From Bacillota bacterium (GTDB lineage: Bacteria > Bacillota > SHA-98 > UBA4971): 64,000 nucleotides of DNA. The stretch is taken from contig JASEJE010000020.1 of NCBI GenBank assembly GCA_030024085.1, positions 129 through 64,128 of the forward strand, given 5' to 3'. Of this stretch, positions 8,164 to 63,490 are shown one piece after another. Within the stretch, counting starts at the first letter, position 1. Each line of letters starts with the position of its first letter. Position numbers and translations under genes: made by a program. The notes under the pieces were generated by a model. It worked only from the letters and a program-made list of their open reading frames with translations. It did not search any database and was not told the DNA's origin.

Positions 8164-8202
8164 CCTGTAGGCGAGGCTTGACCTGACGTTGGATGACCAG
8201 AG

Positions 8203-8466: not shown

Positions 8467-8585
8467 TCGGTTGCGAGAGGCGCGGCGAGGCCCCTCGGCC
8501 CCTCCTTGCCAGGCTGCGCGCAGGGTGAGGAGCCGGCCCCGTCAACCCGCGATGAGAGTAACCAGGCCATTCCCTGGCAACATTA

Positions 8586-22419: not shown

Positions 22420-22550
22420 AAGTGTAAGTTCAGAGATCCTTGCCACTTTTCCGGGAGTTGCCGGCGTTGCGCTCCGGGGACAACCCGCGCTATTCTTCAG
22501 GTCCCGTTGAGCCCCCGGGACCGGGGATCCGGCAGCCCGAAGCACCGCTG
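22420..22550. repeat. MITE-like repeat, copy 3 (degenerate or truncated)
   Basis: Begins like variant 2 (AAGTGTAAGTTCAGAGATCCTTGCCACTTTTCCGGGAGTTGCCGGCGTTGCGCTCCGGGGAC) then decays; ~130 nt. Lies between the deoB stop and the udp start. Confidence 0.6.
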
Positions 22551-26384: not shown

Positions 26385-26489
26385 GAGACGCAAGCAGGAA
26401 ACCGGGGAGGCAGCGCGAACATTAATCGTTATACCTAATACTGCTCTGCTAGATGCGAAATGACGTCTTATTTGACGGGCCCGGCGGGC

Positions 26490-27050
26490 TTGTCTGGCGG
26501 AGAGACTCCTGGCCTTGGCCTTTGAGCGTGCAGTCCCCGGAGGACCCGTGATGTACGGAACGGGTAGGGCAGAAAGAGTGACGCACGTCACGCTTCGCCT
26601 TGCATGCGTGACGCAGGGAACGGGTAAGGGCCGGAACAGTGATGTACATCACTGGATGGCTCTCAATGATGACGTAGGGAACAGCTAAGGAGGGACCCGT
26701 GACGTGCGTCACTGGCCCCGCTTCGACGAGTGACGTAGGGAACACTTCGTGGAGAACCCGTGACGTGAGGAACGGGTGAAGCGGCAAGGATGATGTGCGT
26801 CACCGGTAGGCTCCTGTTGCGTGATGCGGGGAACGGGAAGGACGCGACGAGTGACATGCGTCATCTTTCCCCTTGCATGTGTGCCGTAGGGAACGGGTAA
26901 GGCCGGGACGGGTGATGTACGTCAATCGTTGGCTCCTAATGACGACGTAGAGAACGGGTGAGGAGCATTCCGTGATGTACGTCACTCGTCCACGTCACCC
27001 GTCAGCTCAAGTGACGGCACTACCAAAAGGTCCGTATGTGGCAGAGCAAT
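26490..27050 (+). repeat. complex 60-bp-periodic tandem array, element A (conserved flanks plus ~8 units)
   Basis: Each unit has a 22-mer GTGACGTAGGGAACGGGTAAGG and a 14-bp palindrome GTGACGYRCGTCAC, spaced every 59-61 bp (22-mers at 26548, 26608, 26668, 26731, 26761, 26821, 26881, 26940). Spacers between units are themselves related to one another. Inverted copy at 43398..43995. Confidence 0.8.
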
Positions 27051-27140
27051 ACTGAGCAGGACAGAACAGCTGCCTCGGGGATGGCCCCGGGGTCCTGAGC
27101 GTTTGAGCCCGCAAGCAGACTGACTGATCGTTAACTGGGG

Positions 27141-28364
27141 GTGGTCCTTAAGATGCAGAGCACGTTCGCCGCACGGGCACAGAAACTTCAGCGCTCCGAG
27201 CTCGCAGCCCTTTTCGCGCTGGCGGAGGAGCCGGGGGTCATATCGTTCGCAGGCGGGTTCCCCGACCCGGAGTGGTTCCTGCCCGAGATCACCGAGATAA
27301 GCGACGGGATCATGCGCGCAAACCGGGGGGTTGCTCTGCAGTACGGGCCGACGCCCGGTTTCACCGCGCTGCGCGAGTTCATGGCCGAGCGGCTGACCGG
27401 CCAGGGCATGAAGTGCAGCGCAGCGGACGTCCTCATAACCAGTGGCTCGCTCCAGGGCCTGGACCTGGTGTGCAAGATATTCCTGGAGCCGGGCGACGTG
27501 GTCCTCACCGAGGCGCCGACATACATCGGAGCCCTCCAAACATTCGCGAGCTACGAGGCGGATATCGCGAGCGTTCCGATAGATGCCGACGGCATGAGGA
27601 TCGAAGTTCTGGAATCCGTGCTTCAGGACATACGCGCCGGCAAGCAAGCAGGCGGGCGCATGCCGAAGTTCATCTACACGATTCCGTCGTTTCAGAACCC
27701 GTCAGGGTGCACCCTGAGCCTCGAAAGACGGCGCGCTCTCCTCCAGGTTGCGTCGAGGTTTGGTGCCCCTGTCGTGGAAGACCATGCTTATGCCGAGCTC
27801 CGCTACGACGGCGCACACATCCCTGCCCTCAAGGCCCTCGACGAGGACGACATCGTCGTCCATCTCGGGACGTTCTCGAAGATCTTCTCGCCCGGCCTCC
27901 GCCTGGGCTGGATGATCGGGCCTAGGCCGGTCATGGAAAAAGCCATCCTCTTCAAGCAGGGCACAGATCAGTGCTCCAACTCCCTCGGCCAGATCATGGC
28001 GCTCGAGTACGGGAAACGGGGCCTCATCGAGAAGCAGATAGAGGTCACCGTCGCAAGCCTCCGGAAGAAGAAGGACGAAACCTTGAAGGCCCTGCGCACG
28101 CACTTCGGAGACGCCATAACCTGCACGGTTCCGCAGGGTGGTTTCTACACGTGGGTGACTTTCCCAGAAGGCATCGACACCGTGGCGCTCCTGCCGCGCG
28201 CTGTCAAGGAATACAGCGTCGCCTACGTTGCGGGCCCCTCGTTCTACGCCGACCGCTCCGGCGCGAACAAGGCCCGCCTCTGCTTTAGCCAACCTGGCGT
28301 GGACCAGATCGACGAAGGCATCCGACGGCTCCATGCGTGTTTCGGCGCTTGCGCCGGGCAATAG
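27141..28364 (+). CDS. PLP-dependent aminotransferase (class I/II; MocR/LysN-like catalytic domain without HTH)
   Basis: Fold-type I aminotransferase architecture with the Lys-containing region FSKIFSPGLRLGW. Confidence 0.75.
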   Translation: MVLKMQSTFAARAQKLQRSELAALFALAEEPGVISFAGGFPDPEWFLPEITEISDGIMRANRGVALQYGPTPGFTALREFMAERLTGQGMKCSAADVLITSGSLQGLDLVCKIFLEPGDVVLTEAPTYIGALQTFASYEADIASVPIDADGMRIEVLESVLQDIRAGKQAGGRMPKFIYTIPSFQNPSGCTLSLERRRALLQVASRFGAPVVEDHAYAELRYDGAHIPALKALDEDDIVVHLGTFSKIFSPGLRLGWMIGPRPVMEKAILFKQGTDQCSNSLGQIMALEYGKRGLIEKQIEVTVASLRKKKDETLKALRTHFGDAITCTVPQGGFYTWVTFPEGIDTVALLPRAVKEYSVAYVAGPSFYADRSGANKARLCFSQPGVDQIDEGIRRLHACFGACAGQ

Positions 28365-28394
28365 CCCGGACAGCAGGCCCGACACCATGCGCCG

Positions 28395-28697
28395 TCAGTA
28401 TGGCCAGAAGGGGTCCACTGTTTTCCGGAACGGCGTCGACAAACACCTGACCTCCTCCGCCGCCAGGTTGTAGTAGTTCTGCCACAGGCGGGCGGTCTTC
28501 CGTGAGAGGCGCCTCGAGTTCTTGACGACCTCGAGCCTCTGATCGTCAGTATAGTAAGACATCACCCACCGTATCGCGGCGTCGTCCCCCTCTTCGAGAA
28601 GACGCTCGATAACGAAGAACGGATATTTGTCCGGATCCAACGTTTTCGGGTCCACGTCCCAGAAGAAACAGTGCACGAAATCCGGCAGGACCGCCAT
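28395..28697 (-). CDS. small conserved hypothetical protein immediately downstream of the helicase
   Basis: 100 aa (FFWDVDPKTLDPDKYPFFVIERLLEEGDDAAIRWVMSYY...). Its start is 7 nt from the helicase stop, so it is likely co-transcribed. No confident family assignment. Confidence 0.45.
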   Translation of the reverse strand: MAVLPDFVHCFFWDVDPKTLDPDKYPFFVIERLLEEGDDAAIRWVMSYYTDDQRLEVVKNSRRLSRKTARLWQNYYNLAAEEVRCLSTPFRKTVDPFWPY

Positions 28698-28703
28698 CGG
28701 CGT

Positions 28704-31547
28704 TCACCACCTCGGTCCCTTTGCGCTCCCGTTGCCGTAGTGCCTGCTGCCGTTCATGCCGACGCGGCCGAAGCGGGCAAGCTCGCGGCGCAGCCGGGAC
28801 TCGACGCTCTCGGGCAGGCGCCGCACGGGATGCGGGATTGGCTCGCCGCCGTCATCGCAGTCTTCGCCGGCATCCGAGCGGCGAGGCCCACCCCCGCCGC
28901 TCCAGCGGCCCCGCCCCCGTGGGCCGGCGCTGGGTCGACCGGGGCCTCCGCCTGATCCTCTGTACCATCCTCGCGCCCCGGGCGCCAGGTCTCCCAGAGC
29001 CTGTGAGCCTTCCACAGCCCCGGCCACCGCCCCGGTCCCGGCTGCCGTCGCATCCCCCGCAGACGCTCCAGCCGACGCAACGAGAGGCGCGCCAATCCCC
29101 GACGGCCACCCGGCGCCCTCGCCCGGCGCCGCCCCCAGCATGGGCCTCTCCACGGGCCTGGGTATATACGGTTCCATCTCCAGCAGATCATGGAGGATGA
29201 TGAGGGCAGCCTCCTTGTCCGGGACGCGGCCCCGGGGTGAGAGGTCGGGGTCGTTCTGGGCGAAAGGCGGCACCGGCGCGCCTACGCACGACGGGCAGCC
29301 GTCCTCGCACCTACACCCTTTCACAAGCTCCAGGCACGCCCGGAGCACGTCCTCGAGCGACCTGTAAGCGCGCTCGGCGAACCCCACCCCGCCGGGATAG
29401 CGATCGTACACGAAGAGCGTCGGTGAGCCGGTGTTGAGGGAGTCCACGACCGCCCCCACGTCCCTGGAGTCGCACATGGCGTAAAGCGGCACCACTTCCG
29501 TAATGACGTTGCCGATCCCGTACAGCCCCTCGGACGGGTCGCGCCCCCACTCGCGCACCAGGTTGAGCGTGGAGATGGGCGGCACGAGCCACAACGCGGC
29601 GGTCCCCATCACCTGCGGCGGGAGGCTCACCTTGCCGAACCCGATGCTCTCGCGGCCGTGGAACTTGATCTTCTTGAACATGTACACGAGCGAGGTCACG
29701 GTGACGTCGCCGAACGATGCCGTGGCCTTGTGGAACTTCGTGCTCTCCTGCTCGTTTTCGATCTTCACCGTGGACTCGGAGATGGACTGCGTGAAGTAGT
29801 CAACGTCGGCCTTCTCTACGAAGGCGACCTTCTTGTCCACATCCAGCTCGGACACGAAATACGTCTCGCCGTCGTGCAGGTAGATCGCCTCCGGGTGGAT
29901 CTGCTCGAAAGCGGAGAGCTCGTCCATGGTGCCGATGACGCGGTTCGCCGCGGTGTCCTTCGCGGATGGCGGCCGACGGTCGCGCCCTGCCGCCGTTTGC
30001 GCCGGGTCCTGTGTCGTATCTACGATAGAGTAGGTGTTGTCCGACGCATTGCGCAGCTTGACCGCTTCCGACGGGTACGAAGGGTGCGACCAGTACCACC
30101 TGTTCCCGCGCCGCACGACCTCGCGCTGCTCCTCGAGGATCTGGAGGATGGCCGGCATGTACTCGCCGAAGCGCGCGATGTCCCTCGCCCCGAGCGGCAT
30201 CTCAAAGGCGGCGCAGCGAAGATGCCTCGCCAGCACGTACGGGTTGTGCGGGTCGATGGCCGCACCTTCCGTCGTTCTGCCGAAGAAGTATTCGGGATGG
30301 TTCATGAGATACTGGTCTATCGGCGCGGATTGCCCCACCAGAACCACGAGGGCCTCATCCTGCCCACGCCCGGCCCGCCCGGCCTGCTGCCAGGTGCTGG
30401 CGATGGTGCCCGGATAGCCCGTGAGGATGGCCGCGTCGAGGCTGCCGATGTCGATGCCGAGCTCAAGGGCGTTCGTTGACGTGACCCCGAGCAGTTCGCC
30501 GGAGAACAGGCGCTTCTCTATCTCGCGCCGCTCCTCGGGGAGGTAGCCCCCGCGATATGGCTTGATGGCGCGCGCGAGCGACGGGCTTATCTGCTGCAGC
30601 CGCTCCTGGGCGAACCTGTAGATGAGCTCTGCCACCACGCGCGCCTTCACGAAGGTGATGGTCTGGACCCCCTCGCGAACGAGGTCGACCAGGAGCCGCT
30701 CGGCCTCCACGCTCGAGCTCGCCCGTTCCACCTGCGCAGCGTCAAAGAGCGGCGGGTTCCAGAACACGAACTTCTTCGGGCCGCGCGGCGCACCATCGTC
30801 GTCGACGAGCGTGACGGGCCTGTCTATGAGCTTCTCCGCAAGCTCCTTCGGGTTTGCGATTGTAGCGGAACAGCAGATGAACTGGGGGTTTGCGCCGTAG
30901 TGCTCGCAGATCCGCTCGAGGCGCCTGACGACGCAGGCGACGTTCGAACCGAACACTCCCCTGTAGGTGTGCATCTCGTCGATGACCACGAAGGCGAGGT
31001 TCGCGAAGAACGGCCCCCACGCCGGGTGCCTCGGCAGGATGCCCTGGTGAAGCATGTCGGGGTTCGTGAGGATGATGTTCCCCTCGTCGCGCAGCTTGCG
31101 CCTGGCGTTCGGCGGCGTGTCGCCATCGTAGGTGCCGGCCACGATCGGCATGGCGGGGTCGATCTCACGGTAGCGAAGGAGGCCCCGGAGCTGGTCCTGG
31201 GCGAGCGCCTTCGTGGGGAAAAGATAGAGCGCCTTCGCGCCGGGGTCCATGGCGAGCCTCTCGAGGACCGGCGCGTTGTAGCAGAGGGTCTTGCCGCTCG
31301 CCGTGGACGTTACGACGGCGATGTCGCGCCCCTGCCGGACAGCCTGTATGGCCTGGGCCTGGTGCGTGTACAGGCGCTCGATGCCCACCTTGGCCAGGAT
31401 CGCCGCCACGCGTGGGTGGAGCGGCGGCTCGACATCACCGTAGCGCGCCTTGCGCGCCGGTATGTTCTCCACATGGACGATCTGCCCCCGGTACTCCGGT
31501 GCAAGCTTGAGCCGTTCTATGAATCTGGACGCGTCCATCGTCTCCAC
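28704..31547 (-). CDS. DEXH-box helicase with C-terminal DUF1998 zinc-binding domain (MrfA/YprA-like), plus a long disordered C-terminal tail
   Basis: N-terminus RLYTHQAQAIQAVRQGRDIAVVTSTASGKTLCYNAPVL resembles B. subtilis YprA/MrfA. DEMH box (VIDEMHTY), helicase C motifs and a four-Cys cluster CRCEDGCPSC. The last ~150 aa are a Gly/Ala/Pro/Arg-rich extension. Confidence 0.8.
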   Translation of the reverse strand: METMDASRFIERLKLAPEYRGQIVHVENIPARKARYGDVEPPLHPRVAAILAKVGIERLYTHQAQAIQAVRQGRDIAVVTSTASGKTLCYNAPVLERLAMDPGAKALYLFPTKALAQDQLRGLLRYREIDPAMPIVAGTYDGDTPPNARRKLRDEGNIILTNPDMLHQGILPRHPAWGPFFANLAFVVIDEMHTYRGVFGSNVACVVRRLERICEHYGANPQFICCSATIANPKELAEKLIDRPVTLVDDDGAPRGPKKFVFWNPPLFDAAQVERASSSVEAERLLVDLVREGVQTITFVKARVVAELIYRFAQERLQQISPSLARAIKPYRGGYLPEERREIEKRLFSGELLGVTSTNALELGIDIGSLDAAILTGYPGTIASTWQQAGRAGRGQDEALVVLVGQSAPIDQYLMNHPEYFFGRTTEGAAIDPHNPYVLARHLRCAAFEMPLGARDIARFGEYMPAILQILEEQREVVRRGNRWYWSHPSYPSEAVKLRNASDNTYSIVDTTQDPAQTAAGRDRRPPSAKDTAANRVIGTMDELSAFEQIHPEAIYLHDGETYFVSELDVDKKVAFVEKADVDYFTQSISESTVKIENEQESTKFHKATASFGDVTVTSLVYMFKKIKFHGRESIGFGKVSLPPQVMGTAALWLVPPISTLNLVREWGRDPSEGLYGIGNVITEVVPLYAMCDSRDVGAVVDSLNTGSPTLFVYDRYPGGVGFAERAYRSLEDVLRACLELVKGCRCEDGCPSCVGAPVPPFAQNDPDLSPRGRVPDKEAALIILHDLLEMEPYIPRPVERPMLGAAPGEGAGWPSGIGAPLVASAGASAGDATAAGTGAVAGAVEGSQALGDLAPGARGWYRGSGGGPGRPSAGPRGRGRWSGGGGPRRSDAGEDCDDGGEPIPHPVRRLPESVESRLRRELARFGRVGMNGSRHYGNGSAKGPRW

Positions 31548-31648
31548 AGCGCGACGCCTCGTCGCGGTGCCCAGCGCCCCGCCGGGTGCCGCATGCCTGT
31601 CGTCGCTCCCTCCACTCCCAGGTTCTCCTCCAGGTCTCTCACAGTTAA

Positions 31649-31858
31649 GTAGATCGCCACAAATTCGCGCTACTTTTCAGCGCAAGTCCTGTCCAGGGTT
31701 GCCGGTGTTGCCCTCCGGGGACGGCGCGTGCGGTGAGATGCGTTCGAATCTGGCGCTCAAGGCTAGCCAAGTTCCAGGCGCCCCGCCCTAGCAAGCACCG
31801 CGAGCCCCAACACCTTCAGGAGAAGTGGCGCAAACTTATGGCGCCATACTAACTTAAG
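31649..31858 (+). repeat. MITE-like repeat, copy 4 (variant 1)
   Basis: GTAGATCGCCACAAATTCGCGCTACTTTTCAGCGC...GAAGTGGCGCAAACTTATGGCGCCATACTAACTTAAG. Lies between the helicase start and the DUF2284 gene end. Confidence 0.8.
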
Positions 31859-31928
31859 AATGACCCGCGCGGCTGCATTTTCATCCTGCGACGGTGGCGG
31901 CCGCAGGCCGCCATGGAGGACTTAACGG

Positions 31929-32603
31929 TTATTCGATCATTACGAGCGAATACCAGTTCTGCTCCTGGCTTTCGTCGGCAAGCGTCTCTATCGGAAGCCC
32001 CTGCCTGCGCGCGGTAGCGTATACGTCGATCCCCATGCCCTGCATGGCGGGCCTCGCTTTGCCTGGGAACCGGCAGGGCCTGTCCTCCGGCAGGCTGCAC
32101 TCGGCGCACAGTCCGCAATCGCTCATGCTGAATGCGAAGTAGTACCCGTCCACGTACGCACGGCTCTCCACGGTAAACGAGATCTTTTGGGAGGACTCCT
32201 TGTCATGCGTGTGGATGAGCACTGCGTGCCTGTATCGCGACAGCACCCGTTCGGCCTCCCACGGCTTCAGCGCCCCCGGGGCCGACGGACAGACCCAGCA
32301 CTTCCCCCAGGTAGAGCAGCCATACATGCACTTGAGATAGGTCCTGGGATCGAACACGATGTCGCATGCGTCGATCACAAGGGCGTCCACCGCCCCGAGG
32401 CTCCTTGCCAGCTCGGCGTATTTCGCATACTTCTCCTCCAATTCTTTCCCCTTCTTCCACACGATATGATGCTGCCATAGTTGCCGCGCCGAAACCGGCC
32501 TACTCGTAATTCGACAACCCGGCCCGGCTGTCCTGCCGCCACCCTGCTCGTTCCTGCGGCACGTCGATATCACGCTTGTGTGTGATCTTTGATGTGTTGA
32601 CAA
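31929..32603 (-). CDS. Cys-rich predicted metal-binding protein (DUF2284-like)
   Basis: Cys clusters CMYGCSTWGKCWVCP and DCGLCAECSLPEDRPC. True start probably internal (~32464). Confidence 0.45.
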   Translation of the reverse strand: MSTHQRSHTSVISTCRRNEQGGGRTAGPGCRITSRPVSARQLWQHHIVWKKGKELEEKYAKYAELARSLGAVDALVIDACDIVFDPRTYLKCMYGCSTWGKCWVCPSAPGALKPWEAERVLSRYRHAVLIHTHDKESSQKISFTVESRAYVDGYYFAFSMSDCGLCAECSLPEDRPCRFPGKARPAMQGMGIDVYATARRQGLPIETLADESQEQNWYSLVMIE

Positions 32604-32643
32604 CAGTGTCTATCCGTGGGATACTCTCATCGTAGACCGCCTC

Positions 32644-33042
32644 ATGGGACGGTTGGAGGTGACCTCGATGCCCAAGAAGATCCCCGCGTCCGTGCTGGAT
32701 TTCGTTACACACAACGTCTTGCAGGTGACCGACCTCACACGAAAGGGCCGACTTGCTGAAATCCTCGACGCGTACTCATGCAGGGAGAGCTCGGAAGTAT
32801 ACGTGGTTCAGAACGCGAAGAAGCCAGGCGCGCAGGCCGCGCTGGTGGATGTGGGGTTCCTGAAGGAACTCCTCACCGTAAAGGAACTTGTGGATGAAGC
32901 GGTTGACGATCTCCTCGCGAGCGAAGTGAAGGCTAGGCTCGACGAGCCCGCCGACGTACCTCTGACGGATTTGGTATCGAAGCTCGGGATCGACCTGAGC
33001 GAGGTTGCTCGTTTGGCCGAGAGCGAGGAGACAGAGGAATGA
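32644..33042 (+). CDS. type II antitoxin, Phd/YefM-like
   Basis: N-terminal region (SVLDFVTHNVLQVTDLTRKGRLAEILDAYS...EVYVVQNAKKPGAQAALVDVGF) has the Phd/YefM pattern. Acidic C-terminus. The stop overlaps the start of the downstream toxin gene. Confidence 0.5.
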   Translation: MGRLEVTSMPKKIPASVLDFVTHNVLQVTDLTRKGRLAEILDAYSCRESSEVYVVQNAKKPGAQAALVDVGFLKELLTVKELVDEAVDDLLASEVKARLDEPADVPLTDLVSKLGIDLSEVARLAESEETEE

Positions 33043-33440
33043 ACGTCGAGCAAGACCTGGACCGTCTCCTCGGCAAGGATTGCCGCACGAAGGTGATACT
33101 CGCCCGCAAGGCGGTGGCCGATATCGAAGCGCTTGACCGCGGGCTGCAGAGCATCGTTGTCGCAGCGATAGTCAGGCGCGCCAGGGGAGGGCCTCTCTTG
33201 AAGCCTCGCGGTCTTGGCGAACCCCTTGGTCGCGGCCTTGCGGGGGTCGCAAAGATCAAGCTCAAGAGGCACGGCATGAGAATAGTGTACCGGCCGGTCG
33301 AGAGGGGCGACGCGATAGTCATGGAGATCCTCGCGGTGGGCCCGAGGGCTGCCGGCGAGGTGTACAGGGAAGTCGCTCGCCGTCTGAACGAGATGGACAA
33401 GGATGCTGCGGGTGCAGGCACACGAGAGCCGCCGAAGTGA
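33039..33440 (+). CDS. type II toxin, RelE/ParE family
   Basis: KIKLKRHGMRIVYRPVERGDAIVMEILAVGPR resembles the RelE/ParE C-terminal beta-sheet core. 4-nt overlap with the upstream antitoxin. Confidence 0.55.
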   Translation: MNVEQDLDRLLGKDCRTKVILARKAVADIEALDRGLQSIVVAAIVRRARGGPLLKPRGLGEPLGRGLAGVAKIKLKRHGMRIVYRPVERGDAIVMEILAVGPRAAGEVYREVARRLNEMDKDAAGAGTREPPK

Positions 33441-33470
33441 AGGCGCGAGAAGGAGCGAGCAATAAGAACT

Positions 33471-33498
33471 AGGGGGCGCCCCATAGATCGCCCCCGTG
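33471..33498. terminator. GC-rich hairpin between convergent genes (GGGGGCG-ccccatagat-CGCCCCC)
   Basis: Lies between the RelE stop (33440) and the DUF3794 gene stop (33572). No strong U-tract. Confidence 0.35.
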
Positions 33499-33571
33499 GT
33501 GGCATTTCGTTTCTGACAGGAGCAGTATTAGCAGCACCGGGTCTGCATGAGACTTACGGTTTTGCCCTGGT

Positions 33572-35323
33572 TCACGGGATAACCAGCGTGTCGCCGATCT
33601 CGATGCGGTCGGGGTCGGGAATTGCATTGGCCTGCACGATCGCCGCGACCGTGGTGCCGTAGCCCTGGGCTATCTGGTATAACGTCTCGCCCACCTGCAC
33701 CACGTGGACGCGCCCCGGCGTGGGCACCTGCCCGCCTCCGCCCACCGGCGGCCCTGGCAGGCCCGTGGACGGTCCTGGCAGTTGAGGGGCGATCTCGCCT
33801 GCGCCCGCCGTCGTGTCGTTCACGCCCACCACGGCCGACACGGTGTCGACGCGCGTCACCATGGTCCAGCCGCGCAGCACGACTCTCACATTTACGAACC
33901 TGGGCTCGACCGGGACAGCCACCACCCGGATGACGTCTATGTCGCACACGGCGTAGTAGGCCGGAATGGCGCCTGGCACCCGCAACGTCACCGAGAACGG
34001 CACCGTCTCCACGGTCGCGAACACCCTCTGGGTCGGAAGCTCGGAGTAGAGCACGGTGATTCGCAAGGTGCCTTCCACCAGCACCACGCCGTCGAGGACC
34101 GTGGTCCTCGTCACGCGTACCTGCGCAAACGACTGGATCACCCTGCCGATCGCCGGCAACTCGGCAGGCACGACGATCCGCACCGGGATCGTGGAGTTGT
34201 CCTCGACCTGGCCCACGATCTCCTCCACGAGGAACTCCCGGGTCACTGCCACGAGCGGAGTCGGAAGCGGCTCCACCGCCGTGATGAGCGGCAGTTCCCT
34301 CTCGACCGTCACGACCACGGACACCCGGAGCACGACCCTCACCCGGAGCGTGCGTGCGTTCACGATCTCAGCATCAGCGGCCTCCACGTGTACCGAGGCG
34401 AACGCGAACATCCCCGGCAGCACCCCTGGAAGGCTCACGACGGTGCTGAAGCTGAGGGCACCGTCCACCGAGAATACGGGCTGGTTCGGGCTCATTGCCA
34501 CGTAGAGCACACGCACCGAGACGGCCCCGTTCACCACCACTTTGCTCTGAAGCACCCGGGCGCTGCTCACGGACGCCGCAGCATCGGTGCGGATGACCTG
34601 AGACACGCCGGGTTTGTCCGGCGGTATCGATATCGTCCCGACCGCGATGGTCTCGGCCTCACCCTGCAACACCGCCCGCTCGACTGTGACCACCTTTTTC
34701 TTCACGATGGGCACCACCGGCACTTCCACAGCGGGCACGATGATGGTGGGCGGCACCTCCACCACGACCTCGGTGATCTCCTCCCTGAGGACGCGCACTC
34801 TCAGCGACACAAGCACGTTGACCTCGACGGTTCTCGGATCGATGAGCCGCGCCGTGGCGAATACGCTCGTCACGAGCACCTCCGGGATCATGCCGCCGAA
34901 GACTCCCGGCACACTCACGCTCCCGAACAGGGGCAGCACACCCTCGAAGGCGTGTACCGGCTGCGACGGCGCCGTGGACACGTAGAGAATGTCCACGTCC
35001 ACGTTTCCCTGGATGACCACGGCCCCCGGCACGATCGTGACCTGCGTGATGGCCGCCCGCGCCTGGGTGTCGAGGATGGATGCGATGTCGGGCTTCGGAG
35101 GAGGCACGACCAGCCGCCCGCTCGCCACGATGCTGGCGCTGACGTCGGCGACAACCACCTCGACCTTCACTTTCCTCCGGGGGAAGCCCGATACGATTAC
35201 ATCGGAAGACAACTCGCTCCCTCCTTCCCGCAGACTCCTTACCAGGATATGATATGTGAAGCGCCCACCGGGCGCCACAGGGCGCCGGCGCGCGGCGCAC
35301 CCCGAGGCCGAATGTGGGTTCAC
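33572..35323 (-). CDS. multi-repeat DUF3794 (SipL-like) protein with C-terminal LysM domain
   Basis: Four ~120-aa repeats with the VxGxVxVxxLYVAxxPxQPVxxxxxxxxFxxxxxxPG(A/V)xPG pattern. C-terminal LysM (VHVVQVGETLYQIAQGYGTTVAAIVQANAI). Probable TTG start near 35212, after GGAAGGAGGGAG. Confidence 0.75.
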   Translation of the reverse strand: MNPHSASGCAARRRPVAPGGRFTYHILVRSLREGGSELSSDVIVSGFPRRKVKVEVVVADVSASIVASGRLVVPPPKPDIASILDTQARAAITQVTIVPGAVVIQGNVDVDILYVSTAPSQPVHAFEGVLPLFGSVSVPGVFGGMIPEVLVTSVFATARLIDPRTVEVNVLVSLRVRVLREEITEVVVEVPPTIIVPAVEVPVVPIVKKKVVTVERAVLQGEAETIAVGTISIPPDKPGVSQVIRTDAAASVSSARVLQSKVVVNGAVSVRVLYVAMSPNQPVFSVDGALSFSTVVSLPGVLPGMFAFASVHVEAADAEIVNARTLRVRVVLRVSVVVTVERELPLITAVEPLPTPLVAVTREFLVEEIVGQVEDNSTIPVRIVVPAELPAIGRVIQSFAQVRVTRTTVLDGVVLVEGTLRITVLYSELPTQRVFATVETVPFSVTLRVPGAIPAYYAVCDIDVIRVVAVPVEPRFVNVRVVLRGWTMVTRVDTVSAVVGVNDTTAGAGEIAPQLPGPSTGLPGPPVGGGGQVPTPGRVHVVQVGETLYQIAQGYGTTVAAIVQANAIPDPDRIEIGDTLVIP

Positions 35324-35497
35324 AAGTTCGCTCCGGTGTTCCAGCGAATTCCGGGTTGCCGGCGTTGCGCTCGGGGGACGACGCCCTTGCGGGGCGCCTC
35401 GCTAGATTTGGCGTTCAGGCCTGCCAAATCTTCAACGCCCCTCGCGCAAGCACCGGCAACCCCTGGAAAAGTGGCAGTGATCTCTGAACTCACACTC
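35314..35497. repeat. MITE-like repeat, copy 5 (variant 2-like 3' end CCTGGAAAAGTGGCAGTGATCTCTGAACTCACAC)
   Basis: Same hairpin core. Immediately upstream of the DUF3794-LysM gene. Confidence 0.75.
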
Positions 35498-35686
35498 TGG
35501 GCCCGGCGCCTGATCCGCTCGATCACAGAAGGGACCTCCGGCGTTTTCGCCAGGGTCCCTTCCAACTGCGTTGCGCTGCGTTGCGGGCAAGACGCTCTGC
35601 CCGGGTACGGCGCCAGAAGCTTTGGCCACTTTACCAGGCGGAATCAGGGTTCGCAATCAGGGCCCGCGTTGTTCGCGGTAATCGCC

Positions 35687-37129: not shown

Positions 37130-37151
37130 AGTGGGGGCTAGCCTGTTGCAG

Positions 37152-38786
37152 CTAGCCTTTAGGCGCCGGACAGGCGGGGATCTGGATGACCTGGCCCACC
37201 TGGAGGTTCTCCGGCTGGATGCCCGGGTTTGCCTGGATTATCGCGGCCACCGTCGTGTTGTACTTTCGCGCCAGGGACCAGAGCGTATCACCCGGCTGGA
37301 TGGTCACCATGACGATCGTCGGCTGCGGACACGGCACCTCCGGCGGCTTCACGGCCACCACGGCGACCACCACGTTGAGCTGCACGGGCTCGGTGACCTT
37401 GGCGAACACGCTCACCAGGACCTTCGCGGTGAACCGCCTGTCTTCGACCACCTCGAAGTCCACGTGCTCGATGGCAACGCGCGTCTCGGCCAGGAAGCCC
37501 TCCTGCGTGCCGGGCACCTCGACCACCTGGGTGAACTTGAGGCGGTGCGACATGTGGTGCACCGGCTGGTCGCCCTCGGGGGTCTGCGCCACGTAAAGCG
37601 TCTGAAGCTCGACAACGCCCTCGACGATGACCTTGCCGTCGATGATCCTGTAAGACGCCTCTTTGACAGATGTGTCGATCCTGAGGACGCGCTCGATGTT
37701 GGGCTTCTCCCTCGGCACCTCCAGGGTCTCCTTGAGGATCGTCTGAACCGTGTCCTCGCCGATGACGTCCTCCACGCGGAGCAGCCTCTTCTCCACGTCC
37801 AGCACAGTGCTCTTGGACGTCACCTCGGTGACGACCTCGAGCTGCCTGACGACAGTCACCTTCGCGGTCAGCTTGAGCACCACGTCCACGCTGACCGTGC
37901 GGAAGTCAAGCTCGCTAAAACTCACCGCCTCGAGCACGAGCCGCACCTGAGCCCGCATGCCCACAGCCGCCCCGGGCACCTCGATGACCTGCGAGAACCG
38001 GAGCTGGGTCGAGAAGAAATGCACCGGCAATCTCGGCAGGTAAGGATCGTGAGGCACCGCCGCGTACAGCACGTCCACGTCGATCAGGCCCTCGGCTACC
38101 ACCTGACCGTCGAGCACCTGGACGTCCGTCAGGCGAGGTTTCGCCTCCGCACTGATGACAGATTCGATGTCCGGTTTCTCCGGCGGCACCGTGAGCCTCC
38201 CGCTGACGAGAGCCTGTGCCTGCGCCTCCCCAACGACATCCTCGACCTTCAGAAGCTCCCTGGCCACCTGCAGGTCTGGCGGGCCGGTGACCTCGGTCAC
38301 CACCTCGAGCTGTTCGGTCTTGGTGACCTTGACAGCGGCTGACAGGACGAGCCGCACGTCCAGAGTGCGCACGTCAACCAGATCGAATGCCACGTCGTGG
38401 ATGTCCACCTCGACAAAAGCGTTCATCGAGGGATCCGTGCCCGGCACCTCGGCGATGACTTCGAAGGATACATCCTGCTCAAGGAGTTGCACCGGCTGGG
38501 TGCCGGCGGCCACCCGTGCCACGTAGAGCACCCGCACCCTGATGGTGCCCTCCACGAGAACTTTGCCCTTTATGAGCTGGAATGAACTTGTGAGGACATC
38601 TGCATCGACGCTGATGATCTTCTCGGCGGTAGGCAGGTTCTCAGGGATCTTGAGCATCTCGCGCAGCACCTTGCGCGCCGTGGTTTCGCCGACGACCTGT
38701 TCGACCTTGAGGAGCTCCTCCTTGAGCTCGACACCCACAGCCATCTCCTCTCCCCCTTTCTCGTGACAGGCATGAAACCAGTACAC
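37152..38786 (-). CDS. multi-repeat DUF3794 protein with C-terminal LysM domain
   Basis: Four DUF3794 repeats plus LysM (IQPGDTLWSLARKYNTTVAAIIQANPGIQ). Stop is 22 nt from the next DUF3794 gene start. Confidence 0.75.
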   Translation of the reverse strand: MYWFHACHEKGGEEMAVGVELKEELLKVEQVVGETTARKVLREMLKIPENLPTAEKIISVDADVLTSSFQLIKGKVLVEGTIRVRVLYVARVAAGTQPVQLLEQDVSFEVIAEVPGTDPSMNAFVEVDIHDVAFDLVDVRTLDVRLVLSAAVKVTKTEQLEVVTEVTGPPDLQVARELLKVEDVVGEAQAQALVSGRLTVPPEKPDIESVISAEAKPRLTDVQVLDGQVVAEGLIDVDVLYAAVPHDPYLPRLPVHFFSTQLRFSQVIEVPGAAVGMRAQVRLVLEAVSFSELDFRTVSVDVVLKLTAKVTVVRQLEVVTEVTSKSTVLDVEKRLLRVEDVIGEDTVQTILKETLEVPREKPNIERVLRIDTSVKEASYRIIDGKVIVEGVVELQTLYVAQTPEGDQPVHHMSHRLKFTQVVEVPGTQEGFLAETRVAIEHVDFEVVEDRRFTAKVLVSVFAKVTEPVQLNVVVAVVAVKPPEVPCPQPTIVMVTIQPGDTLWSLARKYNTTVAAIIQANPGIQPENLQVGQVIQIPACPAPKG

Positions 38787-38789
38787 TCG

Positions 38790-38895
38790 CTTTTCATTTC
38801 TACTATATGCGGGCGACTAACCAAAATGTGCATATATTTCTAAATGCGACGCCACCCAGGCGGCCGCGAGCCGGAAATGGAGCGCACGGGGAGGG
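38790..38895 (-). promoter_or_regulatory. AT-rich promoter-like island upstream of the DUF3794-LysM gene
   Basis: tttcatttctactatatgcgggcgactaaccaaaatgtgcatatatttctaaatgcg is ~40% GC in a ~70% GC genome. Contains CATA...TA-like -10 candidates on the minus strand, compatible with mother-cell sigma-E/sigma-K promoters but not resolvable by eye. Confidence 0.3.
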
Positions 38896-38900
38896 CCAGG

Positions 38901-40076
38901 CTATCCTGCAACAGGCGCCGAGAGCTCGGGATCAACGCGCGTCCCCGCGCCCACGACGCTGGCCGACGCGACCACCATCGAATCCAGGCAGCATGCATCC
39001 CCAATCCGCGCTGCCGCAGCAATGATGCACCTGCGGACCTTCGCCCCCCTGCCCACCTGGACGCCGTCGTGGAACACCGAGTCCGACACGTGCGCCCCCT
39101 CACCCACGTGGCAGCCGTGCCCCAGGACGACCCTTGGGCCGACCTCGGCCCTCGGCTGGACCGCCACGTTGTGCCCCATGACGACCGGCCCCGTGACACG
39201 GGCCGTCCTGTGCACGGCGGCGTTCTTCCCGCTCCACACCCCGCAGCCCGCCTTGCGCCCGGGGATGACCACGTCGATCCTCCTTTCGAGGATATCCATG
39301 TGCGCCTTCAGGTAGTTTCGCAGGGTGCCGATGTCGAGCCAGTAGCCGCGGCTTGCGTGCGCCCCCACAGCGGCGCCCCTCGCCAGCAGCGCAGGGATCA
39401 CCTCCCGCTCGAACGACACCTCCCGGCCCTGCGGCAGATCCGCGATGATCCACGGCTCTATCACATAGATTCCTGCGTTGATCGTGTTCACCGCGGCCTC
39501 ATCCCAACCCGGCTTCTCAAGGAAGCCCGTCACGAGACCGGTCGAGTCAGCAAGCACCAGCCCGTAGGCGGCCGGGTCGTCCACGGCGACCGTGGTTATG
39601 GTAACGTCGCTTCCGCGCTCCTCGTGCTCGGCAAGGAGCCTCCCGAGGTCCGTATCGGTCAGCACGTCGCCGTTCAGCACCAGCGCCCGCTCGCCGTCCA
39701 GGCGCGCCTCGCAGTTCTTCATGGCGCCGGCGGTGCCGAGAGGAGCCTTCTCGACCACGTACTCCATGGATACTCCCCACCTGGTGCCATCCTGCAGGCG
39801 CCTGGAGAACTCCTGCGCCATGTAGTTCAGGCTGAACACGATCTGATGGATCCCGTGAGCGCGGAGAAGATCGATCTGATACTCGACAAAGGGCCTCGTG
39901 ACCATCGGGACGAGGCCCTTCGGGGTATCGTAGGTGAGCGGCCGAAGACGCGTGCCCCTGCCCCCTGCGAGGATTATCGCTTTCACCGGCGATACCCCCC
40001 GCTTCCGCCTGCGGCCGCACCCGCATCCGCGTCCGCGTCCACGCCCGTGCCCCCGGCCGTGCGCCCGGCCTGCCAT
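38901..40076 (-). CDS. NDP-sugar pyrophosphorylase (mannose-1-phosphate guanylyltransferase-like) with C-terminal left-handed beta-helix
   Basis: [27 protein letters not shown] nucleotidyltransferase signature. The real start is probably a GTG near 39986-39995, since the ORF-track N-terminus (His/Arg/Gly-rich) overlaps the upstream gene. Confidence 0.75.
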   Translation of the reverse strand: MAGRAHGRGHGRGRGRGCGCGRRRKRGVSPVKAIILAGGRGTRLRPLTYDTPKGLVPMVTRPFVEYQIDLLRAHGIHQIVFSLNYMAQEFSRRLQDGTRWGVSMEYVVEKAPLGTAGAMKNCEARLDGERALVLNGDVLTDTDLGRLLAEHEERGSDVTITTVAVDDPAAYGLVLADSTGLVTGFLEKPGWDEAAVNTINAGIYVIEPWIIADLPQGREVSFEREVIPALLARGAAVGAHASRGYWLDIGTLRNYLKAHMDILERRIDVVIPGRKAGCGVWSGKNAAVHRTARVTGPVVMGHNVAVQPRAEVGPRVVLGHGCHVGEGAHVSDSVFHDGVQVGRGAKVRRCIIAAAARIGDACCLDSMVVASASVVGAGTRVDPELSAPVAG

Positions 40077-41029
40077 GCCACCCTGCCGCGCCAGTATTCC
40101 AGCAGGTCCGCGAGGGTCTTCTCAAACGGGATGGCCGGTTCCCACCCGGTTTTCCGCCGGAATCTCGTCGAGTCGCCCAGCAGCACCGGGACGTCCGACG
40201 GCCTCATCCTTGCGGGATCCTGCTCGATCCGTATGGGCACCTTCGCCATGCCCAGCAGCATCTCGGCCACCCGGGAGACGCGATAGTCGCGACCGCTGGC
40301 GACGACGTATACCTCGCCCGGCTCACCGCGCTCCAGCGCAAGCCAGTACGCCCTGGCCACGTCCCGGACGTCGGTGAAATCGCGCCTCGCCTCGAGATTT
40401 CCCACTTTGAGGACGGGCTCGGCAAGCCGGCACTCTATCTCGGCGATCTGCTTGGCAAAGCTGGATGTCACGAACACCTCCCCGCGCCTCGGTCCGGTAT
40501 GGTTGAACGTACGCGTGCGGACGACTCGTAGGCCGTAGCTGCGGAAATACTGGTAGCCGAGGAAGTCCTGGGCGATCTTGCTCACCGCGTATGGGCTTTG
40601 CGGGCGAAGCGGGTTTTCCTCGTTTATCGGCACCTCGTCCTCGAACACGAGGCCGTATTCCTCCGACGAGCAGGCGATCTGGACGAGAGGATCTATCCTG
40701 GCGCGCCTTATGGCCTCGAACAGGTTGATCTGCCCGAGGATGTTGTTCATCAGCGTCTCCGCCGGGGCAAGCCACGATGTCGGCACGAAACTCTGCGCGG
40801 CCAGGTGAAAGACGAGGTCCGGTCGCACTCGCTCGATCGCCTGGCTCACGGCGGTCGCGTCCATGAGGTCGCACTCCACGAGCGTCATCCTGTCGCGGAT
40901 GCTCTCGATGTTCTCGGTCCTGCTCCTCCACCTCACTGTCCCATATACCTCTATGTCTCCCCGGCTCAGCAGGTACTCAGCCAGATGACTGCCGGCGAAG
41001 CCGGTGATCCCCGTGATGAGGGCTCTCAC
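39983..41029 (-). CDS. NAD-dependent epimerase/dehydratase, GDP-mannose 4,6-dehydratase / GDP-6-deoxy-mannose reductase (Rmd)-like
   Basis: MRALITGITGFAGSHLAEYLL Rossmann motif and an SDR catalytic YxxxK (PYAVSK). Gly/Ala-rich C-terminal tail. Confidence 0.7.
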   Translation of the reverse strand: MRALITGITGFAGSHLAEYLLSRGDIEVYGTVRWRSRTENIESIRDRMTLVECDLMDATAVSQAIERVRPDLVFHLAAQSFVPTSWLAPAETLMNNILGQINLFEAIRRARIDPLVQIACSSEEYGLVFEDEVPINEENPLRPQSPYAVSKIAQDFLGYQYFRSYGLRVVRTRTFNHTGPRRGEVFVTSSFAKQIAEIECRLAEPVLKVGNLEARRDFTDVRDVARAYWLALERGEPGEVYVVASGRDYRVSRVAEMLLGMAKVPIRIEQDPARMRPSDVPVLLGDSTRFRRKTGWEPAIPFEKTLADLLEYWRGRVAWQAGRTAGGTGVDADADAGAAAGGSGGYRR

Positions 41030-41162
41030 CGCACACCCCTCCCTTGTGGTCCTCCGTCCGCCGCGCGCGTGTGCGTGTGCCCGTGTGTGCGGAGCGCCGC
41101 CGCGAGGCGCGGCCAGGCGCCGCCACGTGCCGTCAAACTTCGTCAGATGTCTCTAAGTAGAT

Positions 41163-41364
41163 CGCCAGAAATCCGCGCTGCTTTTCAGCGTGCAGGGGCT
41201 CTCCTGGGTTGCCGGTGCTTGCACTCCGGGGACGGCGCGCTCGCGGCGCGCCTCGTTCGAATTTGGCGCACGGGCCAGCCAAATTCCAGGCGCCCCGTCG
41301 TGCAAGCACCGGCAACCCTACCACACTCAAGAAAAACGCCGAAGACTTCTGGCGCCATACTTAG
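41163..41364 (+). repeat. MITE-like repeat, copy 6 (variant 1; TIR CTAAGTAGATCGCC...GGCGCCATACTTAG)
   Basis: Full-length copy between the epimerase start and the GH18 gene stop. Flanked by ATGTC on both sides (possible target-site duplication). Confidence 0.8.
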
Positions 41365-41389
41365 ATGTCGCCCGATTCGGCAGATGTCG

Positions 41390-43177
41390 TCAGGCGGGCA
41401 GGAGGGAGTCACGGAGGGCTTTGAACCTCGTCCTGAAGGCATCCCACACCAGGGGATCCTCGTCCCCGAGATCGGCTATGGCCAGCCCCGCCAGGTTGAA
41501 CTTGAGGACGAGATCGACGTAACTCGCGACACTCGTCGCGTCCTCGAAGAACACCGTATGGTTCACCCGGAAGGACCTGTACCTGAACGCGCAGGCGCCA
41601 CCAGGCTCGGTGCGGACCACTGAGGGCTTGTAGATGTCCAGGATGTTAGCTGTCTCCGAGTACGCGCGGCGCATCGGCGGGGCGCCGGGCGCTGCCGAGA
41701 AGTCAACGCCGAAGAGCGGGACCCCGAGGACCATCTTCCATGGCGGCACGAGACGAACCATGGCTTTGAGGACGGCGCGGGCCCGGGCCGGAGATGCGGG
41801 CGGCGCTGGCACGGCCAGGCGCTCGGGCCCCTCGTGCAACCGCACGATAATCTGCCTTGCCACCCTGGCAATCTCATGGTACTCGAGTGGACCTGTGCCG
41901 ACAGCCTCGCCCTCTGGCCGGGGTGCGGGTGCCGGGATATCGAGGCTGAGATCCCGACCGTCGCGCTCGAGCACGGACGCAAGCTCACGCACAAAGGAGG
42001 TGAAGGCGTATGCGTCCCGGGGTCCCGGAGCGCACACCGAGAGAACGACACCGTGGGCGCGGCTTCGAGCCGCTGCGGCGGCTATGCCCTTTATGGCAGC
42101 GCGGCGTGCGGAGGCGTCCATCAGCACCTCATCGAGGGGTGCCCATTGTGCTCCTTCACTACCGTGGTCGATTGCAGGCGCGGTATCCGTGTCACACCTG
42201 CTCCCGCTGGCGCTTTCGCGCCTGCCTCCGCCCTCGTGCCTGCTATCTCTCTCGCGTCTCAACTCGCTTTCGCCGTCGTATCGGCCGTCGCCATGGCTCT
42301 CTCTGTCGCTTTCGGCCCCTCTCCCGCGCCCATGCCCACGCTCGCGCCCATACTCTCGCTCACGCTCACGCTCACGCTCACGCTCACGCGCCTGCTCACT
42401 GTGCTCGTCAGCGCCGCTCCTGCCCGTGCCCGTACCCATGCCCCTGGCGCCGCCCGCGCCCCTGCTCCCGTTCCCGCTCCTGCTCCCGTTCCCGCTCCTG
42501 CTCCCGTTCCCGCTCCTGCTCCCGTTCCCGCTCCTGCCCATGGCCGCGCCCGGGCGGGCGGCCATGGGCGGGCGAGGGTGCGGGTCGATGGAGACCACCG
42601 GGAGCACCCGGATGTCGGCCAGCGACGCGAGGGCCGTGACCCTCTTGACGGGCTCCCCTATGATCGTGCCGTCGGCATTCAGGGTGAACCAGCGGGGGGC
42701 CACCGCGGAAATGGACGCCAGGTGGTGCTCGTAGCAGTTCCAGGATCTCTCACCGCCATCGCCTTCCGGAAGGTATGCGAGAAGGCGCGCGACCGGGATG
42801 TTGAGGCACTGCCCCTCCTGGATTTCGGGATCCGGAAGCCGGTTGGCCTGGAGAAGAAGCTCTATGGGGATGTTGTGCTTCCTCGCGACGTGGGCGATGG
42901 TTTCGCCACGGGCCACAAAGTGCCTCACTACCGGCCTTGCAAGCCCGGAGCGGAGCACCGCGAATACCTCGTTGCCTGCGATCCCGTCCACCCGGAGGCG
43001 ATGGGCCTTTTGCAGGTCCCTCACTGCGTCCTTGGTCAGGATGCCGAAGACGCCATCTATCTCACCGGCATAATAGCCCAGGCGCGCAAGCCGCTCCTGC
43101 AGCAGGGTCACGTCGCGACCCCTCATCCCGGAGCGGAGAATCCGCCTCCACGGGTTTTCGCCCTGGGACTCAGCCAT
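41390..43177 (-). CDS. peptidoglycan-binding (PG_binding_1) + LysM + GH18 chitinase-fold protein, SleL/YaaH-like cortex-fragment lytic enzyme candidate, with microsatellite-encoded insert
   Basis: N-terminus LLQERLARLGYYAGEIDGVFGILTKDAVRDLQ (PG-binding), LysM (RHFVARGETIAHVARKHNIPIELLLQANRL), then a GH18-like beta/alpha-barrel. Central (SGNGSR)x4 and (ER)x6 insert encoded by 18-bp and 6-bp tandem repeats at ~42330-42545. Confidence 0.55.
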   Translation of the reverse strand: MAESQGENPWRRILRSGMRGRDVTLLQERLARLGYYAGEIDGVFGILTKDAVRDLQKAHRLRVDGIAGNEVFAVLRSGLARPVVRHFVARGETIAHVARKHNIPIELLLQANRLPDPEIQEGQCLNIPVARLLAYLPEGDGGERSWNCYEHHLASISAVAPRWFTLNADGTIIGEPVKRVTALASLADIRVLPVVSIDPHPRPPMAARPGAAMGRSGNGSRSGNGSRSGNGSRSGNGSRGAGGARGMGTGTGRSGADEHSEQAREREREREREREYGRERGHGRGRGAESDRESHGDGRYDGESELRRERDSRHEGGGRRESASGSRCDTDTAPAIDHGSEGAQWAPLDEVLMDASARRAAIKGIAAAAARSRAHGVVLSVCAPGPRDAYAFTSFVRELASVLERDGRDLSLDIPAPAPRPEGEAVGTGPLEYHEIARVARQIIVRLHEGPERLAVPAPPASPARARAVLKAMVRLVPPWKMVLGVPLFGVDFSAAPGAPPMRRAYSETANILDIYKPSVVRTEPGGACAFRYRSFRVNHTVFFEDATSVASYVDLVLKFNLAGLAIADLGDEDPLVWDAFRTRFKALRDSLLPA

Positions 43178-43334
43178 ATTTCAAAACGCCCTCCGCGCAG
43201 CGAAGTCCTTGCTCGCTGCAAGCTCATGCTGCATTTTATGCCCACGCGCGCCTGCGTGTTACCGCCCTGCGGCTCCCCTGCGACGGCGCAAAGCGGAGGA
43301 GGAGGGGCTTGCCGCGTTGCACTCTCTTTTCGAG

Positions 43335-43400
43335 TCACCGGCAACCCAGCAGCCGCTGGAACGCCCGAAGGGATTAATGAACCCTCACTTAGTACCGCTC
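43335..43400. repeat. MITE-like repeat remnant (3' end only)
   Basis: CACCGGCAACCCAGCAGCCGCTGGAACGCCCGAAGGGATTAATGAACCCTCACTTAGT matches the variant-2 3' terminus CACCGGCAACCCTGGAAAAGTGGCGGTGATTTCTGAACCCACACTTAGT. Confidence 0.45.
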
Positions 43401-43995
43401 TGTCACATATGGAGCGCTGGCAGTACCGTCACTTGAGCTGACGGCTGACGTACGTCACGGGTTCGTCCCCAACCGTTCCCTACGTCACCGTTGATAGCCG
43501 TCCGCTGATGTACATCATCGGTCCCGGCTTTACCCGTTCCCTACGTCACACATGCGAGGGGTAGCGGGACGTGCGTCACTCGTCAGGCTCTTCCCGTTCC
43601 GCACGTCACCCATCGGGGGCCAATGGGTGACGTACATCATCGTTGCCGCCTCACCAGTTCCCTGCGTCACGGGTTCTTCATGAATCGTTCCATACGTCAC
43701 CCGTCGAAGCGAGACGAGTGACGCACATCACGGCTCCGTCCCCAACCGTTCCCTGCGTCACGCTTGAGAGCCATCCAGTGATGTGCATCACCGATGCGAG
43801 CCTTACCCGTTCCCTGTGTCACCCATGCAACGGGAAGAATGATGTATGTCACTCGCCAGGCTCTTCCCGTTCCATACGTCACGCATCGAAGCCAATTGCT
43901 GACGCACATCACTCTCCACCTTACCCGTTCCGTACATCACGGGTCTCCCGGGAACTACACGATTGAGGGCCACCGCGGCCAGGAGTCGCCGTGCC
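43398..43995 (-). repeat. complex 60-bp-periodic tandem array, element B (inverted copy of 26490..27050)
   Basis: CCTTACCCGTTCCCTACGTCAC recurs every ~60 bp (43467, 43530, 43590, 43650, 43745, 43805, 43865, 43925). Both ~50-70-bp flanks are homologous, in inverted orientation, to the flanks of element A. Confidence 0.8.
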
Positions 43996-44051
43996 GGACA
44001 AACCCGCAGACCTGCCAAACCGGATGGCACTTCGTATCTGACAGGGCAGTG

Positions 44052-63447: not shown

Positions 63448-63490
63448 CTCCTCATCCTCCTTGCGGCATCACACCTGCTGCCCACCTGAG

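Follow-up and report, generated by a model that had tools for sequence, protein, structure and literature searches.

A dispersed family of long modular repeats carrying a phased array of palindromic motifs, a probable TA-flanked non-autonomous transposon of spore-forming Bacillota

In the bacterial interspersed mosaic elements (BIMEs) of enterobacteria, built on repetitive extragenic palindromes (REPs), the orientation of the units alternates and terminal inverted repeats are missing; these elements are associated with RAYT transposases. Duplication of a TA dinucleotide, on the other side, is a hallmark of IS630/Tc1-mariner transposition. Such a TA duplication has been documented for ISY100, a member of that family (PMC2170065). 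The BOX elements of pneumococci and other streptococci follow the scheme boxA-boxB(n)-boxC, and in Streptococcus suis alternative terminal modules have been described around the same internal module (PMC3049150). Here, we analysed two copies of a long repeat, elements A and B, found in a 64,000-nt stretch of DNA from a Bacillota bacterium (GenBank assembly GCA_030024085.1, contig JASEJE010000020.1, positions 129 to 64,128 of the forward strand; hereafter the window, in whose numbering coordinates are given). Element A occupies positions 26436-27056 of the plus strand and element B positions 44054-43388 of the minus strand. Both belong to a family, here called family 1, that is probably a dispersed, TA-flanked, non-autonomous and non-coding transposon, i.e. 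a long modular miniature inverted-repeat transposable element (MITE), with a phased array of short motifs as its cargo.

Every copy of family 1 consists of a 5' module, a non-coding core and a 3' module. The 5' module (~113 nt) opens with TA-GTACTGCTCTGTCAGATACGAAATGCCATCCGG, and the 3' module contains the hairpin CCGTCAGCTCAAGTGACGG and ends with CATATGTGACAGAGCAGTAC-TA. The consensus ends of the family are TA-GTACTGCTCTGTCAGATACG at the 5' side and CATATGTGACAGAGCAGTAC-TA at the 3' side, and the paired termini can also be written as GTACTGCTCTGTCAG...CTGACAGAGCAGTAC. The ends are inverted repeats of each other, with arms of 16-20 nt in which 68% of the cells were Watson-Crick pairs across 19 copies. 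Within the core, heads of the sequence GTGAYG are spaced 30, 30 and 31 nt apart in turn (195 intervals of 30 nt, 81 of 31 nt and 12 irregular ones), and all of them are co-oriented. A palindromic site (P) alternates with a half-palindromic one (M): the P site, A-NNN-GTGAYGTRCRTCAC-NNN-T, is a palindrome of 14-22 bp with symmetry reaching the outer A(-3) and T(+18), and the M site, A-NNN-GTGAYGYA-N-GGAACGG-N-T-NNN-G, comprises 26 nt (GTGAYGYNNGGAACGG). A GTAG motif lies within many M sites. The units are not identical, six or so flavours following each other in a fixed order with one M-M junction, and the array looks as if a block of 182 nt had been duplicated at a distance of 273 nt. The information content is 1.2-2.0 bits at motif positions and below 1 bit at most others. 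Since the superperiod of 91 nt is not a multiple of three and no open reading frame (ORF) spans the element, the array is non-coding.

Elements A and B share this architecture and face each other, as a preliminary description of the window, made from the letters alone, had reported. Their alignment with MAFFT gave a mean column identity of 80% over ~620-670 nt, with one extra unit of ~60 nt in B relative to A. A repeat search of the window retrieved them as an inverted pair of 444 nt with 77% complementarity, 16449 nt apart, and the longest exact match between them was 24 nt. Both are intergenic and have the orientation of their flanking genes. The location given for them earlier was correct, whereas alignment with other copies placed the boundaries ~50 nt further out. 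The 'eight 60-bp units' of the preliminary description are in fact a 30/30/31-nt lattice of heads, 15 in A and 17 in B, formed by two alternating motifs. The unit motif GTGAYGTRCRTCA had 26 matches with at most one mismatch in the window (0.45 expected), and the unit motif GTGACGYAGGGAACGG had 18 matches with at most three mismatches (2.1 expected); within the window, the unit motifs are confined to A and B.

The closest architectural analogue of family 1 is the BOX element. Both are composite, interspersed and intergenic repeats with conserved terminal modules that are mutually inverted, both contain internal tandem modules whose number is variable and differs between strains at orthologous loci, and both cluster or nest with other small repeats. 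A further likeness, to the BOX elements of S. suis, is that the M/P array was found with as well as without family-1 termini. However, there is no evident sequence relationship and the likeness lies in architecture only. The units described here, ~60.7 nt long, place two types of motif on a 30/30/31-nt lattice and come in non-identical flavours with a set order; they reside in a GC-rich genome, in elements three to five times longer than BOX; and their internal motifs are conserved far more than the spacers. The motif strings were looked for in the literature as well, and no paper in the library searched contained them or was relevant. A CRISPR array was also considered and rejected, since its identical repeats would be separated by unique spacers, whereas the 'spacers' of family 1 are kept from copy to copy and the entire array recurs at ~20 loci.

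A search for further copies was made with one degenerate unit pattern, scanned against a 596-Gb genome collection (one genome per species) and against metagenome contigs. Matches to the pattern came from two related genomes, with 23 loci in one ('Bacillota bacterium MAG107', JBLNDE01) and 3 in the other ('Firmicutes bacterium UBA6811'); three further single-hit loci in the collection are probably chance matches. It also occurred in ~20 metagenome contigs, with 32 metagenome stretches matched, many of them from Ga0067045, and no array was found in the viral contigs searched. One metagenome contig (L064) is 100% identical to window positions 26398-28383, which include the whole of A, indicating that the organism of the window is present in metagenome Ga0067045. 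The ortholog of A in MAG107 (L006) is 96.8% identical. Altogether, 27 full-length copies of family 1, 306-878 nt long and representing ~20 distinct loci, were recovered, plus fragments. Between paralogous copies, identity is 75-93%; both orientations are represented, and the flanks are unrelated except in orthologous pairs. With terminal inverted repeats, many dispersed copies in unrelated flanks and no coding capacity, family 1 probably belongs to the MITEs. The preliminary description had kept two members of a dispersed repeat family as its fallback, and this is what the copies bear out; their number and lack of pairing are also the outcome that it had named beforehand as refuting a bracket formed by A and B.

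TA is enriched at the flanks of the copies. This dinucleotide is present at the 5' flank of 17 out of 25 copies and at the 3' flank of 10 out of 25, most of the exceptions differing from TA by a single transition; the wider context often reads C-TA...TA-G. At one locus (L069), exactly one TA, common to both, separates a full element from a following 170-nt element (1966-2137, minus strand) that has the same termini and no array, and a second short array-less element with family-1 termini was found at another locus (L026, 7177-7309, minus strand). These array-less elements suggest that the termini form a unit able to carry different contents. In the mechanism that we propose, a transposase encoded elsewhere would most likely recognise the 16-20-nt terminal inverted repeats and act in trans, choosing TA dinucleotides as insertion sites, mostly those within C-TA-G, in the manner of IS630/Tc1-mariner elements. 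Family 1 resembles MITEs of that group in its TA-flanked terminal inverted repeats, often within C-TA-G, in the two elements sharing a single TA and in the presence of a co-resident MITE, family 2, with a demonstrable TA-flanked insertion; it differs in being unusually long and in having a structured internal cargo. That the transposase would be specifically of the IS630 type is a narrower proposition, towards which we lean only slightly.

Family 2 is an unrelated palindromic MITE of ~215 nt with the ends TA-AGTGTGGGTTCAG...CTGAACTCACACT-TA and a conserved GGGTTGCCGGTG arm, which was repeatedly found next to or inside family-1 copies. Comparison of a filled with an empty site (L070 and L025) showed a clean insertion with TA on both sides. 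The window contains seven or eight copies of this family, at 497-703, 6979-7138 (minus strand), 22421-22472, 31647-31853, 35313-35496, 41157-41364, 43336-43392 (partial) and 63490-63570. The partial copy at 43336-43392 is a left arm on the minus strand and abuts the 3' end of B.

Several observations weigh against the description of family 1 as a TA-inserted transposon with a protein-binding cargo. Neither an autonomous element nor a transposase with matching ends was found in the ~0.5 Mb of loci searched, and no paired family-1 termini lay 1-2 kb apart among the recovered loci. The loci compared contained no clean empty site for family 1, so the TA could belong to the inverted repeat instead of being a target duplication. 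The site of B in three relatives (L030, L032 and L037) is only 76-83% identical and is rearranged, which makes the duplication unreadable and leaves a puzzling GGTAACAC repeat. A length of 306-878 nt is large for a MITE. In some orthologous pairs the copies resemble each other less than their flanks do (83.7% versus 94.8%), which speaks against simple purifying selection acting on the element as a whole. The protein partner of the array is purely our conjecture, and within the window the motif is restricted to the elements. Finally, 16 of ~21 copies, according to a crude gene caller, have the direction of the gene downstream of them, a bias not predicted by a role at the DNA level alone.

The motif GG(G/C)GGTAACAC occurs on both sides of the insertion region of B, at 43233-43270 and 44045-44062. 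The GGTAACAC copy at 43262-43233 is located in a promoter-like site, GTAACA-18-TAAAAT, that is kept upstream of the GH18-type gene in relatives without B. This flanking motif pair may represent a long duplication, microhomology or a coincidence.

Comparison of orthologous copies revealed how the array changes. Orthologues from MAG107 and from the population of the window have lengths of 801/629, 610/818, 490/611 and 306/>420 nt; the differences comprise whole blocks, although the surrounding flanks are 91-98% identical. The arrays contain hardly any small indels. After insertion, the array grows and shrinks in whole-unit steps, perhaps via unequal recombination or slippage. Substitutions between orthologues affected 45 out of 889 motif positions (5.1%) and 137 out of 1582 spacer positions (8.7%), a comparison with some ascertainment bias, as the motifs were defined on one partner. 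The alternation of M and P and the 30/30/31 spacing were also found in contigs of other organisms that have no family-1 termini (L066, 1040-1430; L054, 370-960; L045, 650-1000; L050, ~8100-8610), and arrays are likewise present in the group formed by L041, L046, L050 and L067. The L066 contig comes from a sediment metagenome, and its array lies between convergent genes for an M48 peptidase and a NifU-like protein, in unrelated flanks of lower GC content (55%). The heads in this array are 85% identical to those of family 1, and its spacers have a best identity of 59%, versus 44% for shuffles. Since arrays with the same lattice exist outside family-1 termini, we conclude that the array is older and more conserved than its vehicle in the window. 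The motifs of the array and their spacing are under constraint.

The facing arrangement of A and B had been taken in the preliminary description as a possible sign that recombination between them inverts the intervening 16.3 kb, or that they delimit a composite transposon or an acquired island. The two copies are indeed inverted, 620-670 nt long and 77-80% identical. To compare the segment with relatives, contigs were fetched via a SipL/DUF3794 protein from its middle. One of them, L032, from a more distant relative, has ~89% protein identity at the gene used as the query and keeps the gene order and orientation of the window across flanks and interior alike (glycosyltransferase, GH18-type, sugar-nucleotide genes, three SipL, DUF2284, helicase, aminotransferase and PAP2), yet it lacks B: there are 245 nt at that site, compared with 83 nt in L030 and 254 nt in L037, in which the segment is also syntenic. 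The ortholog of A in L032 (19380-19760, minus strand) has ~five units left, has lost its 3' half and has many mutated M/P motifs; it appears to be decaying, not maintained. As B is missing from the relatives and A is present, though decaying, in L032, we consider A to be old, B to be a lineage-specific gain and their facing arrangement to be incidental. By the sequence comparison, A and B are independent insertions, inverted by coincidence, and the interior reads as ordinary chromosomal DNA. The numerous other copies without any pairing, the longest exact match of 24 nt and the metagenome contig L064, which agrees with the window arrangement at A, speak against inversion as well, and neither recombinase, transposase nor integrase domains were matched among the selected bracket ORFs scanned, in agreement with the earlier statement that the segment has no integrase or transposase. 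An invertible or composite segment is therefore scarcely credible. Of the genes that had been listed for the segment, the MrfA-type helicase, the SipL/DUF3794, GDP-sugar and GH18/LysM genes and the three MITE copies were recovered, whereas the proposed toxin gave only a sub-threshold ParE hit. The exact protein sequence of the helicase had no entry in the assembly index. A different mode of spread, in which a REP/BIME-type palindromic array is moved by a RAYT (an IS200/IS605-like tyrosine transposase) acting on single-stranded hairpins, could account for intergenic mosaics of clustered short palindromes with fixed linkers in many copies, and for the GTAG inside M sites. In family 1, however, the heads are co-oriented and do not alternate, and defined inverted termini flanked by TA bound the element and recur in its array-less relatives; no evidence of unit-specific hairpins was obtained, and no RAYT gene was present among the selected window ORFs scanned. 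We consider this mode of spread highly improbable.

Two further alternatives concern the array itself. Family 1 could be a multi-copy structured RNA, transcribed as a series of hairpins with the termini as its closing helix and serving as an mRNA stabiliser, an attenuator or a protein sponge. The predicted RNA folds are very stable (z = -7.9 and -6.0) and the ends form a closing helix; the sense strand is G-rich (GC skew +0.14 to +0.18), and the prevailing orientation with the downstream gene is in line with transcription. The P position pair 5:10 has 46 U-G against 9 C-A combinations, an excess confounded by the shared descent of unit flavours. However, the tests for a conserved RNA structure were negative. 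Rfam 15 yielded no match at the gathering score and only noise at E <= 10. Covariation in the consensus structure of 10 sequences was no higher than in column shuffles, 79-308 out of 500 of which reached the observed values, and the RNAalifold covariation term contributed -1.8 of -152 kcal/mol. The sense-minus-antisense difference in stability, -5.4 kcal per 100 nt, equals that of shuffles of the same composition (-4.95 +/- 1.7), indicating that the folding advantage of the sense strand is due to base composition. Complementarity between the two flanks of a P or M site did not exceed that between flanks taken from different units (p = 0.8), G-U (41) and A-C (33) combinations were about equally frequent in the terminal helix, and the conserved G6/C9 centre of P is unable to pair within a hairpin. 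Two specific foldings were rejected: a P hairpin on a unit-specific basal stem, as only half of the units fold in this way and matched flanks behave like mismatched ones, and pairing of P with neighbouring M heads, as A-C mismatches made up 27 out of 76 and 27 out of 88 cases, with no mutual information detected. A structured RNA is consequently an unlikely explanation. It is also conceivable that the element is selfish and its array functionless, the conservation of motifs coming only from recent tandem duplication and gene conversion. The unstable length of orthologues, the decay of the A copy in L032 and the orthologous copies that diverge faster than their flanks agree with this, yet the unit flavours differ strongly in their spacers while keeping motifs and exact spacing, and in L066 both the motifs and the 30/30/31 lattice persist despite weakly similar spacers and unrelated flanks. 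We regard a functionless array as rather unlikely.

As regards the cargo of the probable TA-flanked transposon, the conserved G6/C9 centre and the symmetric outer A/T of P would fit a duplex site for a dimeric protein better than an RNA hairpin, and M fits a site that keeps one good half. A protein could bind the array cooperatively on one face of the duplex at intervals of ~three helical turns; we suggest such binding tentatively, as the most plausible reason for the constraint, though at odds below even. The F-plasmid sopC locus consists of 12 x 43 bp, each repeat with an inverted repeat, Lrp-type sites are spaced three helical turns apart, and the RacA ram sites have the sequence TGACGCCGGCGTCA. 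Dyad-symmetric sites at a fixed spacing of ~three helical turns are common to these systems and the M/P array, a likeness that we treat as a lead only. It is extended by the P half-site TGACG, which equals the ram half-site, although the spacing of half-sites in ram differs from that in P, and the sites described here ride on a mobile element at ~20 loci. A CRP/FNR-type site was rejected for P: the GTGA-N6-TCAC core is present, yet a T precedes GTGA in no more than 3% of the sites. The most far-reaching proposition is that the M/P array is a portable, conserved nucleoprotein scaffold, with 7-10 dyad-symmetric sites plus half-sites, exactly spaced by ~three helical turns and bound cooperatively by a DNA-binding protein, which a TA-targeting MITE would have captured and scattered to ~20 chromosomal loci in one lineage of GC-rich spore-forming Bacillota. 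We put it forward as speculation that is more doubtful than cooperative binding as such.

Element A is a full-length copy of 621 nt. Its left terminal inverted repeat (A-TACTGCTCTGCTAGATGCG) lies at 26438-26457 on the plus strand, preceded by TA at 26436-26437. The phased array follows at 26548-26985 (plus strand), with eight M heads at 26548, 26608, 26669, 26730, 26760, 26821, 26881 and 26942 and seven P palindromes at 26578, 26639, 26699, 26790, 26851, 26912 and 26972. The hairpin of the 3' module (~27000-27018) is located just upstream of the right terminal inverted repeat (27033-27052, minus strand; reverse complement TATTGCTCTGCCACATACG). The neighbours of A are a PAP2 gene (25500-26384) and an aminotransferase gene (27153-28364), all co-directional. 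Element B (667 nt) is likewise full-length and has nine M heads and eight P palindromes. Its left terminal inverted repeat (CACTGCCCTGTCAGATACG) is at 44033-44052 on the minus strand, with TA before it at 44054-44053, which doubles as the stop codon of the upstream ORF, and its right terminal inverted repeat (TACCGCTCTGTCACATATG) is at 43392-43411 on the plus strand, with TA after it at 43391-43390. B lies between a hypothetical gene (44052-45110) and a gene with GH18, LysM and peptidoglycan-binding (PG-binding) domains (41390-43177), upstream of the promoter-like site of the latter (43262-43233). A solo 5'-end fragment of family 1 (TAATACTGCTCCTGTCAGAAACGAAATGCCACC) is found inside the bracketed segment at 33497-33531 on the minus strand, with a terminator-like hairpin after it.

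Other repeats of the window are associated with coding sequences. A 429-nt tandem repeat at 46383-47552 (2.7 copies, 71% match), with related segments at ~49.0 and 50.3 kb, is situated within long minus-strand ORFs that correspond to SipL/DUF3794 genes in relatives, and we therefore interpret it as a repeated protein domain and not as non-coding DNA. Hexamer and 18-mer tandem repeats (CCCACT, CTGGGA, GATGAG, CGCTCCTGCTCCCGTTCC and TGAGGT) occur within long ORFs at 10354-10410, 14353-14413, 17632-17687, 42327-42537 and 58893-58958 and probably encode low-complexity protein linkers. At window positions 28383-28440, just past the aminotransferase gene, two independent assemblies, the metagenome contig L064 and the MAG107 contig JBLNDE010000062, end within ~55 nt of each other, and no obvious repeat was seen there.

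Family 1 represents a previously undescribed family of long modular repeats from GC-rich spore-forming Bacillota of digesters. Its recognition removes a tempting wrong reading of the window, in which there is neither an inversion switch nor an acquired island, and the repeat also explains why the assemblies of this organism break at such sites. The differences in unit number make the arrays usable as variable-number markers for strain typing. That motifs and spacing are retained while spacers and termini change is the pattern typical of a functional DNA or protein-binding module travelling as transposon cargo. If a binding partner exists, family 1 would be a natural case of transposon-mediated dispersal of binding-site arrays in bacteria, and if the scaffold proposition were true, a mobile element would be seeding chromosome-organising or regulatory protein-DNA complexes around the genome.

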